Positions 3,468 to 37,556 of a stretch of DNA of 39,757 nt are shown here, in pieces. Location: the IMG/VR virus record IMGVR_UViG_2541047752_000002; one strand, written 5' to 3'. Positions within the stretch are counted from its first letter, which is position 1. The number at the start of each line of letters is the position of its first letter. The stretch is from a virus. Its lineage: Duplodnaviria > Heunggongvirae > Uroviricota > Caudoviricetes. The position numbers and the translations under genes were made by a program. The notes under the pieces are model-generated. The model made no database searches. It saw only the letters and a list, made by a program, of their open reading frames with translations, and had not been told where the DNA came from.

Positions 3468-3994
3468 TTGCGTAACTCCGATAAATCGTTAAAACGTTCC
3501 ATAAACATCCCGTAGGCATGACCCGGTGCCAGTGGAATCACGTTGAACATCTCTGTTGCCGGGATGCCTTCCAGTACAGGCCAGAAAGAGCCATCATCAA
3601 GCCCGAGATCGCGGCGTTCGGTTGCCAGCATGATGAGATCGGCATATTTCACGGGTGTACTCATAACTGGGGGTAACTCGTATTTCTCACGGATTACGGC
3701 GTCTATTTTTTCTTCCATCCGTTTATAGTCAGGAAGAAGGCGTTTCAGTGGTGCGGGAATGTCCTGGCAATACGCTTCTGTTGCATCATGCATTAACGCT
3801 TCAAAAGCAAATTCCTGCGGCACCAGCTGGCTGCAAAGAACCGCATGTTGGGCGACGCTGTAGAAGTGCGAAAGATGACCGGCAAAGCGACAGATATTTG
3901 AAAGGGAAACCGCGATATCGTTAATATCGATGTCGTCTTTATTTATCTTGTCATAATAAAAATGCTTCCCGGAAAAAGTTTTAATAAATGACAT
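3458..3994 (-). CDS. yfdR: HD-domain phosphohydrolase (YfdR-like 5'-deoxynucleotidase family)
   Basis: HD-family motifs (…FAGHLSHFYSVAQHAVL…, …HDATEAY…); start moved to internal ATG 3994 with GGAGA Shine-Dalgarno (178 aa); track ORF extends to 4021. Confidence 0.75.
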   Translation of the reverse strand: MSFIKTFSGKHFYYDKINKDDIDINDIAVSLSNICRFAGHLSHFYSVAQHAVLCSQLVPQEFAFEALMHDATEAYCQDIPAPLKRLLPDYKRMEEKIDAVIREKYELPPVMSTPVKYADLIMLATERRDLGLDDGSFWPVLEGIPATEMFNVIPLAPGHAYGMFMERFNDLSELRKCA

Positions 3995-6582: not shown

Positions 6583-7257
6583 TTAGGCTTTGATTTTGTA
6601 TCTTCTTGGTTTTCCTGAGAAAATCACAGTTCCAATTATAGAGCAATTACCGTTGATCTTAATGTAAGGCTCAGGCCAGTTTGGGTTTAACGCTTTGAGA
6701 TAACGCTGTGTCCCATCTTCTATCAACCTTTTGAAGGTGGTTTCACCTGTATCGTGCATCAATGCAATAACGTCGTCACCGTGGCAGGCAGGTACTTCAG
6801 GATCGACAAAAATCATGTCTCCCGGGCGGTACTCATCAATCATTGAATCACCTATCACCCGCAAGATATAAGTCATTTCCCCACAGGGTACAGGGCAGGG
6901 ATACGTTTCTGCTGTGCTCAAATCAACCTCAGAATATCCAACTTCTTTCCATGCTCCGGCCTGTACCCATGATATGACAGGGACTAATGTGATTTGTTTA
7001 TTAGTGATTGAAACATCAGGTTTTTTTGTGATGTTCGTTGTCTGGTGTTCTTGATCGAGCCATCCGACAGGCAGGTCGAAACATTTTTCGATGTGTCGTG
7101 CCATGCTGTCACCGATATTTTTAGTAGCACCATCTCCCATAAACCTGCTGGTCTGGGTTGGCTCGCGATCAATCATAGTGGCAAAGGAAGAATTCCCGCC
7201 AACACCATCTCTCAGTTTTCTGGCGTTAGACCGCCGGATGTCATGGATTGTTTTCAT
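6583..7257 (-). CDS. CI-like prophage repressor (HTH plus S24/LexA-type autopeptidase domain)
   Basis: 224-aa ORF; C-terminal S24 peptidase signature (…VIGDSMIDEYRPGDMIFVDP…); divergent from cro across an operator-rich intergenic region; no Shine-Dalgarno, so probably leaderless. Confidence 0.85.
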   Translation of the reverse strand: MKTIHDIRRSNARKLRDGVGGNSSFATMIDREPTQTSRFMGDGATKNIGDSMARHIEKCFDLPVGWLDQEHQTTNITKKPDVSITNKQITLVPVISWVQAGAWKEVGYSEVDLSTAETYPCPVPCGEMTYILRVIGDSMIDEYRPGDMIFVDPEVPACHGDDVIALMHDTGETTFKRLIEDGTQRYLKALNPNWPEPYIKINGNCSIIGTVIFSGKPRRYKIKA

Positions 7258-7347
7258 AACAAAATTAAAACCCTTGTACCGTTAAGGTACAAGTATCTTG
7301 AAGGTTCATTTCAATCATGTAATATGTATACCGGAGGTACATATTGT
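7258..7347. promoter_or_regulatory. OR region with divergent PRM/PR promoters and operators
   Basis: Palindrome TGTACC-GTTAA-GGTACA (7275-7291); further GGTACA half-sites at 7286 and 7335; PR candidate TTGAAG(7298)-16 nt-TAATAT(7320); PRM candidate TTGTAC-17 nt-TTTAAT ending 7 nt before the cI ATG. Confidence 0.6.
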
Positions 7348-7548
7348 ATGAAAGTGTATTGGGACTCTTTAACCAAAGAACAGCAGGGCGAGTTGGCCGG
7401 AAAAGTTGGCTCAACACCTGGCTACTTACGGCTGGTTTTCAATGGCTATAAAAAAGCCAGTTTTGTGCTGGCTAAAAAACTTGAGCAATGCACGTCAGGT
7501 GCAATTACGAAATCTGACTTAAGACCGGATATCTATCCGAAAGATTAG
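7348..7548 (+). CDS. Cro-like repressor
   Basis: 66-aa ORF (MKVYWDSLTKEQQGELAGKVGSTPGYLRLVFNGYKKAS…) with HTH-like segment; GGAGG Shine-Dalgarno at 7334-7338; track ORF 7045-7548 is an upstream run-on. Confidence 0.75.
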   Translation: MKVYWDSLTKEQQGELAGKVGSTPGYLRLVFNGYKKASFVLAKKLEQCTSGAITKSDLRPDIYPKD

Positions 7549-7579
7549 CAGAACACTTTCAATTTTTAACCACAGAACG

Positions 7580-8149
7580 ATGAGGCTAATCGTGGGTAAG
7601 CATCACTGGAAAATAGAAAAACAGCCTGAGTGGTACGTGAAAGCTGTCAGAAAAACTATCGCGGCGTTGCCGGGTGGTTACGCTGAAGCCGCTGACTGGC
7701 TGGATGTAACAGAGAACGCTTTATTCAACCGCCTTCGTGCAGATGGCGATCAGATTTTCCCGCTGGGATGGGCAATGGTTTTACAGCGTGCTGGTGGCAC
7801 TCACTTCATTGCTGATGCTGTGGCGCAGTCTGCAAATGGCGTCTTTGTGTCTCTTCCTGACGTCGAGGATGTGGACAACGCCGATATTAACCAGCGTCTG
7901 CTGGAAGTCATTGAACAGATCGGCAGTTATTCAAAACAGATTCGTTCAGCAATCGAAGACGGTGTAGTGGAACCGCATGAGAAGACAGCAATTAACGACG
8001 AGCTGTATCTCTCAATTTCGAAGCTGCAGGAGCATGCAGCACTTGTCTACAAAATTTTTTGCATTTCAGAAAGTAATGACGCCCGCGAGTGTGCAGCTCC
8101 GGGCGTCGTGGCGTCGATTGCTTCTGGTTGTGGAGAAACTAACGCATGA
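7580..8149 (+). CDS. Early regulatory protein (CII-like/YdaT-like by position)
   Basis: 189-aa ORF directly downstream of cro; family assignment is positional only. Confidence 0.5.
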
Positions 8150-8493: not shown

Positions 8494-9435
8494 ATGAGCA
8501 CTAAATTAACCGGCTATGTATGGGATGGTTGCGCTGCGTCAGGCATGAAGTTATCCAGCGTGGCAATTATGGCCCGCCTGGCTGATTTCAGTAATGACGA
8601 AGGTGTGTGCTGGCCATCAATTGAAACCATTGCCCGCCAGATTGGCGCGGGGATGAGCACCGTCAGAACGGCTATCGCACGGCTGGAAGCGGAAGGCTGG
8701 TTAACGCGTAAGGCGCGTCGCCAGGGTAACCGCAATGCGTCGAATGTTTATCAGCTTAACGTTGCGAAGCTTCAGGCAGCGGCATTTTCTCAACTGTCAG
8801 ATTCTGACCCGTCAAAATCTGACGCATCAAAATCTGACCAGTCAAAATTTGATGCGTCGAAATCTGGCAAAAAAGCGGGTTTTCACCCGTCAGAATCTGG
8901 CGGGGATCCGTCAGTAAAATCAAAACATGATCCGTCAGATAAAAAAACTTCTCGTCCGGACGCTTCGCAACCGGACACGCAGACGGCTGAACAAGAGTTT
9001 TTAACTCGCCATCCTGATGCGGTTGTATTCAGCCCTAAAAAGCGCCAGTGGGGAACGCAGGATGATTTGGCCTGCGCACAGTGGCTCTGGAAAAAAATCA
9101 TCGCTCTGTACGAGCAGGCCGCCGAATGTGACGGCGAAGTGGTACGTCCTAAAGAACCGAACTGGACAGCCTGGGCAAACGAAATTCGCCTGATGTGTGT
9201 ACAGGATGGGCGTACTCATAAACAAATCTGCGAGATGTACAGCCGCGTCAGCCGCGATCCGTTCTGGTGCCGTAACGTGCTCAGCCCGTCGAAGCTGCGG
9301 GAAAAATGGGATGAGCTTTCCCTGCGCTTATCGCCGTCCGTAAGCACGTACACCGAAAAACGCGAAGACCCGTACTTCAAATCCAGTTACGACAACGTGG
9401 ACTACAGCCAGATCCCGGCAGGATTCAGGGGGTGA
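8494..9435 (+). CDS. Replication initiation protein (O-like; N-terminal winged HTH)
   Basis: 313-aa ORF; N-terminal HTH-like segment (…SIETIARQIGAGMSTVRTAIARLEAEGWL…); iteron array inside the gene as in lambda O. Confidence 0.7.
   Translation: MSTKLTGYVWDGCAASGMKLSSVAIMARLADFSNDEGVCWPSIETIARQIGAGMSTVRTAIARLEAEGWLTRKARRQGNRNASNVYQLNVAKLQAAAFSQLSDSDPSKSDASKSDQSKFDASKSGKKAGFHPSESGGDPSVKSKHDPSDKKTSRPDASQPDTQTAEQEFLTRHPDAVVFSPKKRQWGTQDDLACAQWLWKKIIALYEQAAECDGEVVRPKEPNWTAWANEIRLMCVQDGRTHKQICEMYSRVSRDPFWCRNVLSPSKLREKWDELSLRLSPSVSTYTEKREDPYFKSSYDNVDYSQIPAGFRG
8797..8950. repeat. Putative replication origin: iteron array inside the initiator gene, followed by an A-rich tract
   Basis: About 7 tandem ~15-bp repeats (CCGTCAAAATCTGAC, GCATCAAAATCTGAC, CAGTCAAAATTTGATG, CGTCGAAATCTGGC, CCGTCAGAATCTGGC, CCGTCAGTAAAATC, CCGTCAGATAAAAAAA). 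Confidence 0.6.
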
Positions 9436-12859: not shown

Positions 12860-13825
12860 TCAGAATCGCCCTTTTATTGCTAAATTACGATAATAAACAC
12901 CTAATGCAGTAAGTCGGCATCCAGTTGAATTTATCGCAGCATAGTACATATGTTCAGTATCAACCGGCTCAACCAGTCCGTGGCGGTTACATTTTTGTAG
13001 ATTTTGAAAAATTGATACATTTTCATCAATCGGTGATTCGGAAGTTGGTTCAAAGCTAGGATCTAAATGGAATACATGTGTAGCTGTTGGGAACCATACG
13101 GGCAATTTGCGAAGAGTATCCAAAGACACTCTTGGTCCTACCTCTCTCAGAACAACAAATCGAGAAACATTTGTTTTAAAGACTGGGCGCTGATCCCACG
13201 CCCCCAATGCTTGATCCACAAAGCTATACAGACTACTTGGAGTAATATAACCTAATATATTAGCTCCTGCGCCATACAAAGCTTCGACCATTAATGAAGT
13301 AAATACTCCACCATCATTAACTTCTTTGGCATACTCATCTCGTCTACATGCAGTAAGGATGGTAGAGCCATCTGCAAGTACAGTTTCTCCTCCTTTTAGC
13401 ATTCTTTCCTGGCCAGCGGCCCCAGCCTGACAGCAGTCGAGAATAATAATTTTATTGCGTATGTTAGTTGCTTTATTAGCCCAAACCATAACATCACTTA
13501 TTCTTATGCCATTACTTGATCTTGGCGAAAAGTCATGTGGAATCAACATTCCTTCATCAATGTTATTATCAAAATATCCATGTCCAGCAAAGTAAAATAA
13601 TGCAACATCACACTCTCCAGAAAAAAGATTCTGAATTTCATATTCAAGGAAATCTTTGTTGAGGGGGGTTGCACTACAGTGTGTAAGTGTTCTAGCCTCG
13701 AAATTAGGCCTCCCATCGGCGTGTCTAGATAATGCTTCTGCCATTTTTGCAGCATCATTTTCACATCCGCTGAGAGCATCTAATTCAGCATACTCATTGA
13801 TCCCAATAAATAGTGCTTTTTTCAT
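12860..13825 (-). CDS. Caspase-like (peptidase C14 family) cysteine protease with C-terminal extension of unknown function
   Basis: 321 aa from ATG 13825; motifs KKALFIGINEY…GCENDAAKMAEAL, His in FYFAGHGY, Cys in IILDCCQAG (intact His/Cys dyad); AGGAG Shine-Dalgarno overlaps the stop of the upstream TIR-like gene; AT-richer than flanking phage genes. Confidence 0.75.
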   Translation of the reverse strand: MKKALFIGINEYAELDALSGCENDAAKMAEALSRHADGRPNFEARTLTHCSATPLNKDFLEYEIQNLFSGECDVALFYFAGHGYFDNNIDEGMLIPHDFSPRSSNGIRISDVMVWANKATNIRNKIIILDCCQAGAAGQERMLKGGETVLADGSTILTACRRDEYAKEVNDGGVFTSLMVEALYGAGANILGYITPSSLYSFVDQALGAWDQRPVFKTNVSRFVVLREVGPRVSLDTLRKLPVWFPTATHVFHLDPSFEPTSESPIDENVSIFQNLQKCNRHGLVEPVDTEHMYYAAINSTGCRLTALGVYYRNLAIKGRF

Positions 13826-13835
13826 ATGGAAGCTC

Positions 13836-14237
13836 CTAAGCCAGCTCACGAATGGCAGAAACGATGCTTTCTGTATTCCACTTGACGATTTTGTGAGCGG
13901 CTTGCTTAACTTTCATAGACGTACGCTCGGAGCCCCAAGGCTCAATGGCAATAATTGGCTTTCTATATTCTTGAGCTATTCGGATCTCTGCATCAATCCA
14001 TTTGCTGTAGCTGGCATATACACCAGCCAAAATAATTACAACACTTGATGGTGCCATTTGTGATCTTATAGCAGAGTAAAGTGCAAAATCATCTTGGGCA
14101 CCAATTATTGGATCAACTCTGGGTACCGAGTAGTTCTTAAAGTTGAAATACCCACGATTCTTGAGAAGAGCCACAAGCTGTTCATAAGTGTTTGAATATT
14201 TCCAAGAGTGACTAATAAATAGATTAAAAGTTCTCAT
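13836..14237 (-). CDS. Minimal TIR-like domain protein (ThsB/DUF1863-like)
   Basis: 133-aa ORF; N-terminal FNLFISHSWKY strand motif and downstream SKWIDAEIRIA with a candidate catalytic Glu; GGAGAG Shine-Dalgarno; translationally coupled to the caspase-like gene. Confidence 0.65.
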   Translation of the reverse strand: MRTFNLFISHSWKYSNTYEQLVALLKNRGYFNFKNYSVPRVDPIIGAQDDFALYSAIRSQMAPSSVVIILAGVYASYSKWIDAEIRIAQEYRKPIIAIEPWGSERTSMKVKQAAHKIVKWNTESIVSAIRELA

Positions 14238-15709: not shown

Positions 15710-15863
15710 TCTGACTTCTGAAACACCTGTACCGTTCATACCAAATCCTCTGACTTATGGTGCCAGCCTGGAGCTGAATGTGAGTCTGTTGTCTGCACTG
15801 GCTAACTGCAATCGGGATAAAGCTGATATTCGTAAAATAGATGCAGAGAGAACTAACCATTAA
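15606..15863 (+). CDS. Rz1-like outer-membrane lipoprotein spanin (overlapping Rz in +1 frame)
   Basis: Signal peptide with lipobox (MMVVLHALCLLPLLSGC) followed by proline-rich mature region; overlaps the Rz 3' end. Confidence 0.6.
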   Translation: MMVVLHALCLLPLLSGCGSTRTVYVSTPATTLPTSLTSETPVPFIPNPLTYGASLELNVSLLSALANCNRDKADIRKIDAERTNH

Positions 15864-15875
15864 GCAATAAAATTG

Positions 15876-16511
15876 TCAAATTAATAAGTTGTCAAATGAA
15901 TATACGTTAAAGGTATATGTCGACATAATTTCACCAAGTACCTCAATACATATACTTTTTTTATGAAAGATACTGGGGAAGGAACTTAGCTCTTCAAGGC
16001 ATTGCACATAAGTGCTGATATCACTTGCATCACGTTCAAGGAATTTCACTTGGCCAAAAGAAGGAGTATTAATCCTAGTTCTTTGCTGGATTATATGGAT
16101 AAAATGTGTAGTTGGTGAAACTATTACTCTTGAAATATCGGAAATGATGTCTTCTTGAACTTGCCGATAAAGTAAATCCTTTGGGTAATGGTGTTTGATC
16201 TCGATGGTTGCAACATTGCCATTATGTTCAGACGTTAATATCGACTGGTTATAAAGTGATATGTCAACAGCGCCGATACCGAGTTTTGGATGCTCACTTA
16301 AAGCAGTTAGTGTGCTGATTTGATTGAGAATAACAACTAACTCATCACGTATTTGAGTTTCATGTTTGCGATTGTAGAAGTAGCAATTCAGTTCATTTAA
16401 CTTTTTATGCATCCTATCGTGACTAATTGCTTCGATCAGTAAATCCTGAATCATACTTTTCTCTAGGTAATCCGAACGGTTGTAAGTGACAGTATTGTGC
16501 TGGCATGTCAT
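15876..16511 (-). CDS. Hypothetical protein (211 aa), possible PD-(D/E)xK-like motif; AT-rich moron
   Basis: ORF on the strand opposite to the surrounding late genes; segment …GAVDISLYNQSILTSEHNGNVATIEIKHH… fits a D…E-x-K spacing (weak inference). Confidence 0.5.
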   Translation of the reverse strand: MTCQHNTVTYNRSDYLEKSMIQDLLIEAISHDRMHKKLNELNCYFYNRKHETQIRDELVVILNQISTLTALSEHPKLGIGAVDISLYNQSILTSEHNGNVATIEIKHHYPKDLLYRQVQEDIISDISRVIVSPTTHFIHIIQQRTRINTPSFGQVKFLERDASDISTYVQCLEELSSFPSIFHKKSICIEVLGEIMSTYTFNVYSFDNLLI

Positions 16512-16554
16512 TAGTATGTAAAGGTATTGTGAATGCCAGCAAGATAACGAAGTA

Positions 16555-16908
16555 TCATCGATAGAAAAACTTTACGGCCCACTCGTAAACCGCTTTGTAA
16601 ATCGGTTCATGGTAAATACTATCGATACTATTCAGATGTGCGATCATCGCCTCCACAGTTGTAGTGGTTGTTTCTAATATTTCGATTATTGCAGGGCGGT
16701 CATCATCTTCATCGAAGTATTCGAACAGCAGTACAGGTTTACCATGCCATTCAGCATCTGAGACTCTAAGGTTACAACTACCGCTCAACTCAAAGTGAAT
16801 TTTGTAATTACCTTCTACAGAATGGCCTACGGGGAAAAAGCATAGGGTGTCATCTTTGTTTAAAAGCCATTCCAATTCATAACTATTCATTTGTGAACTC
16901 CTGTTCAT
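16555..16908 (-). CDS. Hypothetical acidic protein (117 aa) upstream of the 211-aa ORF
   Basis: Co-oriented with the 211-aa ORF, 43-bp gap; acidic stretch FEYFDEDDDRPAIIEILETTTTT; no recognisable domain. Confidence 0.5.
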   Translation of the reverse strand: MNRSSQMNSYELEWLLNKDDTLCFFPVGHSVEGNYKIHFELSGSCNLRVSDAEWHGKPVLLFEYFDEDDDRPAIIEILETTTTTVEAMIAHLNSIDSIYHEPIYKAVYEWAVKFFYR

Positions 16909-17040
16909 TGAGTTTCAACAACTATCAACTACATCCAGCGAAGCATAAAAGATCGTTTATGGCAAAACCGGAGTGGAGTGCGATTCGATTCTGAGAAGGA
17001 TGCCACGTATCGCACGCGAACCATCCAAGAGGATTATGCA

Positions 17041-17391
17041 ATGCCACCACGAACCCCAAAAGCCTGCCGCGTTCGCGGCTGCCCCCATACCACCACTGAC
17101 TCGTCAGGCTATTGCGAAAGCCACAAAAGCGAAGGCTGGAAGCAATACAAGCCAGGCCAGTCCCGTCATCAGCGCGGCTACGGTTCGAAGTGGGACTGTA
17201 TCCGCGCGCGTGTCCTGAAGCGTGACAAAGGCCTGTGTCAGTTATGTCTGCGTGCTGGTGTGGTGCGTGAGGCGAAAACCGTTGACCACATCATCCCTAA
17301 AGCGCGTGGCGGCACTGATGCCGACAGTAATCTACAGAGCCTGTGTTGGCCGTGTCATAAGGCGAAGACGGCCCGTGAATGGCTGAAGTAA
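17041..17391 (+). CDS. HNH endonuclease (terminase-associated)
   Basis: Start at ATG 17041 (MPPRTPKACRVRGCPH…); Cys-rich HNH motifs (…CQLCLRAG…DHIIPKARGG…LQSLCWPCHKAK…); directly upstream of terminase small subunit. Confidence 0.8.
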   Translation: MPPRTPKACRVRGCPHTTTDSSGYCESHKSEGWKQYKPGQSRHQRGYGSKWDCIRARVLKRDKGLCQLCLRAGVVREAKTVDHIIPKARGGTDADSNLQSLCWPCHKAKTAREWLK

Positions 17392-36098: not shown

Positions 36099-37556
36099 TT
36101 ATTTGACGTAAATGTGGTTTCTGTATTTGACAAAAATCACATCACACACGCTTTCAATATCTTCAGGTTGACCATAAATTTTCTTCACAATATTCAATTG
36201 TTCTTTATTCTCAAGAATAAAGAAATTATTTCCTTTGTTATACCATTCGCTATTTGTAAGCCAGTTATCTCTTTTTATTTCATTGTTATTAAAAAGTATA
36301 TTTGCTATTTTTATGTCTCCATTCACACCAACAGAGTTAGTAAATGTGAAAGGGGCATATCCATAATTTGCTTTGTGCTCGTTGATTTTTTCTCTAATAC
36401 ATGACATCTGATTGTATCTATTATCAGTGGAGCCATTAATATTTATTGTTTTAATTCCTGATATTATACCCAAAAAAGCTATTAATAAAATAATGCTTTT
36501 TTTATTAAATTTAGATCTTGACAAAAGAATTACTGCCATAATGAAGACGGGAACAAGGTATCTTATTGTCCATATATTTCTTGGGAGGTTACTACCAATA
36601 TAAGCAGATGTCATGATTAAAATAGACAATGACAAACATATATCAATAACGCTTCTGTTTTTAAAAAGATTTCTGAAAGTGAAGTAAATTAATGCAACAA
36701 CACCAGCAAAGCGTATTGCTTTAGATAATAGATGCAGTGATGGTGTTATTTGCTCACCAAATATGTTTGCATTAAAAAACAATAAAGTTCCGCTTACTGC
36801 AGTATTTATATTAACTAAAATATTGTCATACTCAACAATCTTTACATCTGTTAGTCCTGGCAATGTAAAGCTTCCAAGGTTTAAAAACAAAAAACCGATC
36901 GCCTTGGAAATTAAATATGAAGAAAACAATCCAGCCATTATAATAAGGTATTTCTTTTTTCTTTCCTTGTGCAACAAAAATATTGCTGCTAATGTTAGCG
37001 GTGCAACGTATATATAGACTGAGATATTATCGCTAAAAATAGCCATAGAGGATAGTATGGTTGAAAAGTATACAAATAATATATTTTCTGTTTTAATATA
37101 CTTTTCTGTAAATATTAAGCATCCAATGATAAATATGTATGTACCCATGTGAATGCACGCTGAAAGCATTGATGTAACAGCCATGTCAGCAGGGAAAACA
37201 AAGTAGAATATAATTAGCGCTAATGCTAATGATTTATTTGTAGACAGCCTGTATATCAAAAATATCACAGTAGCATACATCGCTGGTGGTATTATATATG
37301 CAAGCTCACTGCTGTAGCCAAATAATATAGAGGCGATCGCATAAAAAGATACTTCTGTAAAGTAAAAAGGAACCGTGGATAGCATCCATCCATGAAGTAA
37401 GTAATTACCTTCTGACATATCCTTACCAAGCAAAAGCACTGTTGCCGCATCTGTATTTGGTGGGAATATGTTTAAGCTGGCAAAGTGATATAGCATAAAC
37501 AATGACGCAAATAATAAAATCACGAATATAAATTTAATTTGTTTTTTGAAAATCAT
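36099..37556 (-). CDS. Serotype-specific O-antigen glucosyltransferase (Gtr type, polytopic membrane protein)
   Basis: 485-aa very hydrophobic AT-rich ORF immediately downstream of gtrA-gtrB. Confidence 0.75.
   Translation of the reverse strand: MIFKKQIKFIFVILLFASLFMLYHFASLNIFPPNTDAATVLLLGKDMSEGNYLLHGWMLSTVPFYFTEVSFYAIASILFGYSSELAYIIPPAMYATVIFLIYRLSTNKSLALALIIFYFVFPADMAVTSMLSACIHMGTYIFIIGCLIFTEKYIKTENILFVYFSTILSSMAIFSDNISVYIYVAPLTLAAIFLLHKERKKKYLIIMAGLFSSYLISKAIGFLFLNLGSFTLPGLTDVKIVEYDNILVNINTAVSGTLLFFNANIFGEQITPSLHLLSKAIRFAGVVALIYFTFRNLFKNRSVIDICLSLSILIMTSAYIGSNLPRNIWTIRYLVPVFIMAVILLSRSKFNKKSIILLIAFLGIISGIKTININGSTDNRYNQMSCIREKINEHKANYGYAPFTFTNSVGVNGDIKIANILFNNNEIKRDNWLTNSEWYNKGNNFFILENKEQLNIVKKIYGQPEDIESVCDVIFVKYRNHIYVK

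Follow-up and report, generated by a model that had tools for sequence, protein, structure and literature searches.

The window analysed here is a stretch of 39,757 nucleotides from a tailed virus (Caudoviricetes; IMG/VR record IMGVR_UViG_2541047752_000002), an SfV/e14-like Escherichia coli prophage which carries, between its lysis and packaging genes, an insert with two minus-strand genes, here termed A and B. The gene order is Q antiterminator, a cassette for a TIR and a caspase-family protein, holin, endolysin, Rz/Rz1, A and B, and HNH, followed by the P27-family small terminase, the large terminase, the portal, and an HK97-type head. Homology to sister prophages (blastn) stops at position 15871 and restarts exactly at the start of HNH at 17041; the DNA in between, which follows the Rz1 stop at 15863, is thus the cargo insert (Table 1). 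Its G+C content is 0.38 (0.40 in A, 0.35 in B), as compared to 0.557 in the downstream structural module, and the initial annotation of the region was right to describe two minus-strand open reading frames between Rz1 and the HNH/terminase genes, AT-rich relative to the prophage. A 16-nt tandem direct repeat (15870-15901; AAATTGTCAAATTAAT / AAGTTGTCAAATGAAT) lies exactly at the left boundary of the insert and at the stop codon of B.

Table 1. Features of the cargo insert, in coordinates of the window.
Feature	Position	Strand	Remarks
Variable cargo insert (1169 bp)	15872..17040	.	flanks common to sister prophages
Gene B, 192-aa stand-alone protein	15876..16454	-	predicted PD-(D/E)xK (restriction-endonuclease-like) fold
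Predicted nuclease core of B, residues 29-127	16074..16370	-	AlphaFold2 model and invariant columns
A-B spacer, 100 nt	16455..16554	-	weak promoter-like site and imperfect inverted repeat, neither above chance
Promoter-like site TTTACA-17-CACAAT	16522..16494	-	consensus scan, weak
Imperfect 14-nt inverted repeat, 26-nt loop	16493-16506 / 16533-16546		in the spacer; overlaps promoter-like site
Gene A, 111-aa acidic cytoplasmic orphan protein	16555..16890	-	start preceded by ribosome-binding site; phrog_14397
11-codon relic MAKPEWSAIRF* of the 5' end of a Terminase_2-type terS	16959..16991	+	68 nt upstream of A

Both genes are almost certainly shorter than their longest reading frames. The frame of B extends over 211 aa (15876..16511, minus strand), and its likely start is M20 at 16454, since all homologues begin with MIQ or MIx at this point and both the RefSeq call and the coverage of the PHROG profile agree with it. 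The frame of A extends over 117 aa (16555..16908, minus strand) and likely starts at M7, whose ATG at 16890 has an AGGAG 7 nt upstream and again agrees with the RefSeq call and the PHROG coverage. Relatives of B and A at 50-75% identity show purifying selection, with non-synonymous divergence (dN) of 0.18-0.28, saturated synonymous divergence (dS), and dN/dS of at most 0.15 wherever it can be computed; A and B are thus real genes. The window copy of B ends in SFDNLLI followed by the stop codon, whereas the annotated length of the RefSeq copy (WP_000613841.1) is 189 aa, which makes it three residues shorter.

The AlphaFold2 model of B, with a predicted local distance difference test score (pLDDT) of 84 and a predicted template-modelling score (pTM) of 0.84, contains a core formed by a helix (29-46), three strands (50-55, 63-68, 80-89), a second helix (97-108), and a fourth strand (117-127), in the canonical α-β-β-β-α-β order of PD-(D/E)xK nucleases. 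K30 and E32 are located on the first core helix, D64 (codon 16265-16263) on strand 2, and E85-x-K87 (codons 16202-16200 and 16196-16194) on strand 3; these five residues form the only invariant columns in 40 sequences of the B family, at identities down to 20%. The initial annotation had seen in the segment AVDIS...IEIK a weak indication of such a core; the segment is indeed present, and the model topology, together with the five invariant residues, now backs the inference. The best, if not decisive, structural matches to the model are the Type II endonucleases R.SwaI (5tgq), BglI (1dmu), and EcoRV (1eo3), which share with B the small single domain, the α-β-β-β-α-β core, and the D...(D/E)xK motif on strands 2 and 3. 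On the strength of the model topology and the invariant columns taken together, we consider it highly probable that B has the PD-(D/E)xK fold, and probable, if with somewhat less assurance, that it retains catalysis.

B, with an isoelectric point (pI) of 5.9, belongs to a narrow family. A word-indexed search yields 31 clusters, all from Enterobacterales, and an exhaustive HMMER search of 1.84 billion representatives yields only 48 proteins at E ≤ 0.001. Profiles of HSDR_N, PDDEXK_4, SduA, and REase_II are matched weakly, and by single distant members of the family only; sequence and profile searches of the PDB, made with three alignments, gave nothing usable, and a fold search of BFVD gave no match at E ≤ 0.001. 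Despite the structural likeness, a Type II restriction-modification system can be rejected as an identity for B: no methyltransferase gene is found in the insert, in the annotation of a near-identical prophage, or adjoining the B homologues that were inspected, so that B is not a classical enzyme of this kind. Shedu SduA (DUF4263) is closer in its setting, being likewise a stand-alone nuclease of the same superfamily which occurs on mobile elements and islands without a methyltransferase. Its model, however, is matched by one distant member of the B family (E 1e-5) and by neither the window B nor the other 38 members; B is half its size and is without the N-terminal sensor domains that Shedu has.

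A is acidic, as had been stated at the outset, with a pI of 4.56 and 20 D and E residues versus 8 K and R. Its family is confined to Enterobacterales (Escherichia, Pectobacterium, Hafnia, Serratia, Citrobacter, Pantoea) and is marked by a nearly invariant acidic DEDDD loop (D60, D62-D64) and a conserved pair of C-terminal helices. It has no match in Pfam, NCBIfam, or PADLOC, and no relative in the PDB. The earlier description of both proteins as being without a recognisable family holds equally for B, as the only matches of the two in the family libraries are PHROGs of unknown function, phrog_14397 for A and phrog_12494 (E 1.7e-127) for B.

The junction between Rz1 and HNH takes different contents in related phages. 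In strain AH04 it is empty, with 26 nt from Rz1 to HNH; a sister prophage of O157:H7 carries iss/bor there on the opposite strand, HeN100 a 197-aa orphan gene, and E. coli GF60 the B gene with a different 151-aa orphan gene. The junction is thus a true hot spot, equivalent to the bor site of phage lambda, and the initial annotation of the region as a known site of accessory genes (‘morons’) is borne out by the sister prophages, which are empty there or carry other cargo. The insert itself has the features by which morons are recognised: dispensability, a fixed junction, deviant base composition, an orientation of its own, and a content that varies among sister phages. Like A and B, lambda bor and iss lie downstream of Rz/Rz1 on the opposite strand; their product differs in being an outer-membrane lipoprotein for serum resistance, unrelated to A and B in sequence and function. 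In phage phi80, the corresponding site ahead of the packaging genes holds the defence genes TaiEcA and AtiEcA; like A and B, they are prophage cargo flanked by the lysis genes on one side and the packaging module on the other. Tai is the defence and acts by blocking tail assembly, and Ati is the counter-defence (PMC11364771). Tai resembles B in being encoded by an opposite-strand gene of about 200 aa with a small gene beside it, whereas Ati lies on the late strand and A is co-oriented with B. An identity of A and B with this system was rejected, since neither has homology to TaiEcA (orf63) or AtiEcA (orf64): the comparison of B with orf63 gives an E-value of 0.53 in BLASTP and a probability of 0.8% in hhalign, and Tai does not match the nuclease profile of B. 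As the Type II restriction-modification system, the SduA profile, and Tai homology all fail, B fits known classes only at the level of the superfamily.

How A and B came to lie side by side can be read from their relation to terS, the gene for the small terminase. In prophages that carry only A or only B, the gene directly abuts, in divergent orientation, the start codon of a terS of the Terminase_2 type. We scored this start with the motif CCAGTCCGGTTTTGCCAT, the reverse complement of ATGGCAAAACCGGACTGG, which encodes MAKPDW. The motif is found 66-68 nt upstream of A in 50 of the 53 loci scored (in 50 of 50 where A is at least 60% identical), and 36-40 nt upstream of B in 21 of the 24 loci in which B is 60-90% identical; given these fixed distances, A and B are alternative occupants of one and the same slot. 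The window retains a trace of this slot in the form of the terS relic upstream of A (Table 1), a single match as compared to 0.01 expected by chance, even though the phage itself packages with HNH and a P27-family small terminase rather than one of the Terminase_2 type. Relics of this kind also precede B in loci of Enterobacter, Pectobacterium, and Yersinia in which intervening DNA now keeps B and terS apart. A second relic upstream of the window B, with about 17 of 29 matches when aligned by eye (MAFFT), went undetected at up to 4 mismatches and is not claimed.

These considerations suggest, as the simplest history, that successive recombination at the 5' boundary of terS inserted A between B and terS, and that the stacked block would then have moved into the SfV-like backbone, carrying the 11-codon relic along. 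In Enterobacter hormaechei (loci L014-L018, around 3680-3910 on the plus strand), an open reading frame for an acidic protein of 72-77 aa (pI 4.65) lies between the real terS and the terS relic that precedes B; here, too, cargo has accumulated next to B on its terS side. This Enterobacter frame (75 aa) was tested as a relative of A and rejected.

The initial annotation had proposed that the two genes could form an immunity/toxin or a defence pair, and had named an analysis of their co-occurrence as a check and a lack of conservation as a pair as grounds for giving up the proposal. A reading of A and B as a functional unit, in which A would be an antitoxin, an immunity factor, or an inhibitor of the nuclease B, or in which both would form a two-component defence, can draw on their adjacency, their common orientation at a distance of 100 nt, the acidity of A, which it shares with many nuclease inhibitors, and the different small acidic frame of 75-77 aa that precedes B in Enterobacter prophages. 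It can further draw on joint inheritance in E. coli, where the intact block is found in 73 of 5426 complete genomes, that of UMNK88 (NC_017641.1) included, and these 73 make up most of the approximately 80 genomes that carry either gene. The two genes co-occur, however, in a single E. coli lineage only, with B at 90% identity or more, and are apart in every more divergent locus examined. Among 22 loci from other genera, fetched through either protein, 11 contain only A, 11 only B, and none both. Among 129 further loci from metagenomes and IMG/VR, A is present in 40 of the 43 whose B shares 90% identity or more with the window copy, and in none of the 86 below this value; with the two sets taken together, A is absent from all 97 loci with B of less than 90% identity. 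Conversely, 14 loci with A only were found, those in Serratia and Pantoea among them. Single genomes extend this pattern: B is intact without A in E. coli GF60 and lacks any same-strand gene upstream in Citrobacter (L003), and is thus tolerated alone, while A persists in E. coli CD45 beside a B that is truncated next to an IS3 element. Since A and B are, in addition, alternative occupants of the same terS-proximal slot, and the small acidic frame of Enterobacter is unrelated to A, we regard a functional unit as unlikely; the comparison of loci indicates that A and B are not a conserved toxin/immunity pair, and leaves the earlier suggestion of a pair, whether for immunity or for defence, unsupported.

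In the spacer between the two genes, the fold of the inverted repeat does not significantly exceed that of shuffled sequences in stability (z -1.6); the repeat may serve as an operator or for processing. An Rfam scan of the region returned nothing.

For B itself, three other readings have to be weighed. As a free-standing homing endonuclease, B would cut the genomes of phages without B near the 5' end of terS and spread by recombinational repair with the flanking terS; it is in fact a solitary nuclease of patchy distribution whose junction, 36-40 nt from the terS start, is precisely the same in unrelated phage backbones, and the cassette takes 5' relics of terS along into surroundings to which they do not belong (L014, L019, L002, and the window). 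Cargo that is not a nuclease (A, iss/bor, the orphan genes), however, has equally fixed junctions in the same slot, so that recombination at the hot spot explains the pattern without homing. Members of the B family moreover occur in chromosomal loci outside phages (L019, L025, L028), B is oriented against the late genes, whereas a phage homing endonuclease needs expression in co-infection, and homing enzymes with the PD-(D/E)xK fold are rare; homing thus appears improbable. The same fold is found in many phage nucleases for recombination and repair, and B adjoins the genes for DNA packaging, both of which would suit a housekeeping nuclease of the lytic cycle, acting in recombination, repair, junction resolution, or degradation of host DNA; as phages with an empty site are viable, a role of B in the phage's own cycle is not apparent, and we give this reading the least credit of the three. 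Finally, B could have the fold of a nuclease without its activity, as a DNA-binding regulator or an exclusion factor, or its fold could be a false positive arising from a generic α/β sandwich. This, too, seems a slim prospect, as the five invariant columns coincide precisely with the acidic residues and lysines at the canonical sites of helix 1, strand 2, and strand 3, and inactivated homologues normally lose such residues.

We favor, with a probability of roughly 55%, a reading in which the segment consists of two independent accessory genes that have come to lie together in the cargo slot just ahead of the packaging genes, and of which B would be an active nuclease expressed in the lysogen, most likely for defence. 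Both genes run counter to the late operon, as lambda bor does, and would presumably be expressed from the prophage; A is an unrelated small acidic orphan protein, normally the sole occupant of the same slot. B would act as a small, stand-alone, metal-dependent nuclease with the intact catalytic set E32, D64, and E85-x-K87 and without a partner methyltransferase, cutting incoming foreign nucleic acid as a restriction-like enzyme that either depends on modification or is compatible with the methylation of the host; alternatively, it could be a suicide nuclease activated by infection. Self-DNA might accordingly be spared through dependence on modification, through compatibility with host Dam/Dcm methylation, or through activation upon infection only, and antisense late transcription would damp B once its own prophage goes lytic.

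Single-gene prophage defence is the most likely role for B, at odds that we put close to, if slightly short of, even. Four considerations point to it: the slot, which elsewhere holds iss/bor and Tai, with a Thoeris-like cassette in the neighboring Q-holin hot spot; an orientation opposed to that of the late operon; the absence of a role in the phage's own cycle, given a viable empty site; and the neighbors of distant B relatives, which include WYL-WCX regulators, an SLOG protein, an IetA-like ATPase, and ParE, a company resembling that of conflict islands.

Several results weigh against this reading or against parts of it. The defence role is drawn solely from location, orientation, and fold; the window B matches no entry in Pfam, NCBIfam, or PADLOC, their curated PD-(D/E)xK families included, and no sequence in the PDB. 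The structural model of A is poor (pLDDT 64), and a fold search with it gave no functional lead. A scan of promoters found 2 promoter-like sites as compared to 4.0 expected, and no terminator. The joint inheritance in E. coli may reflect a functional link between A and B that is specific to this lineage. Neither A nor B was found by tblastn in any of 50,697 deposited phage genomes, phi80 among them; at the DNA level, the cassette likewise has no match in deposited phage genomes. A literature search under the accessions found nothing, and the supplements of DefensePredictor do not list the two proteins.

Beyond this, it is conceivable, although we would rather bet against it, that B founds an uncatalogued anti-phage family of the restriction fold, single-gene and independent of a methyltransferase, which would occupy the terS-proximal slot in enterobacterial prophages and have distant relatives in the conflict islands of other phyla, and that A is a second new competitor for this slot, expressed in the lysogen. 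The B family is in fact absent from PADLOC, Pfam, and NCBIfam. If B were an active defence nuclease, it would add a compact (about 190 aa) restriction-fold enzyme without a methylase to the immunity genes carried by prophages, and would be a small protein whose specificity could have practical interest. An uncharacterised nuclease in a prophage hot spot will not surprise the specialist. The family is compact and absent from the catalogues, and the shared slot with its terS relic illustrates cleanly how phages exchange cargo. Clearer than the role of B is a methodological result: a nuclease and a small acidic neighbor mimicked a toxin/immunity pair, and comparative genomics resolved them into stacked alternatives for one slot. 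The fixed junctions at terS and the transplanted relic at the same time document how lambdoid and SfV-like phages trade cargo through recombination at the boundary of the packaging genes.

Relatives of B are found in several other settings. B relatives at 26-44% identity occur in a series of metagenome contigs (L055-L114), many of them named as gut-metagenome assemblies, and are recurrently accompanied by a YspA-type SLOG protein, WYL-WCX regulators, a DUF6892/DUF7738 protein, a calcineurin-like phosphoesterase, and a 620-aa orphan protein; the loci probably represent a small number of mobile elements in redundant copies. In two loci (L028, 3517-5555; L029, 178-2859), a distant member directly follows, on the same strand, the gene for a DUF2779 protein that combines a Cas4-like N-terminus with an RNase H-like domain, and in L028 an IetA-like AAA ATPase and a WYL protein are also nearby. 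DUF2779 and B may form a separate two-gene system in this branch. As a general partner of the B family, DUF2779 was rejected, being found in 2 of 4 distant loci inspected and not among the recurrent neighbors in 57 metagenome loci. In Yersinia frederiksenii (L002), B is flanked by two further orphan genes, one for 240 aa (7080-7802, minus strand) and one for 206 aa (8602-9222, plus strand); the product of the latter was considered as an ADP-ribosyltransferase on account of an R...S.S...E-like spacing, and was rejected because it has no match in Pfam or PADLOC.

Two other regions of the window carry minus-strand genes of note. At the Q-holin hot spot (12860-14237), the gene for a 133-aa TIR protein, ThsB-like in PADLOC (E 2e-12), overlaps that for a 329-aa caspase-family protein (PADLOC caspase, E 1.7e-19), a cassette which we take to resemble the recently described type IV Thoeris defence (TIR plus caspase-like); in sister prophages, this site is taken by an SDH/Clp-fold protease, a KwaB-like gene, or a methyltransferase fragment. 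A very AT-rich segment at 36099-38832 (G+C content 0.29-0.39) contains three minus-strand frames of 120, 305, and 485 aa, which by eye are presumably gtrA, gtrB, and a serotype-specific gtr glucosyltransferase gene, the O-antigen modification operon of SfV-type phages.
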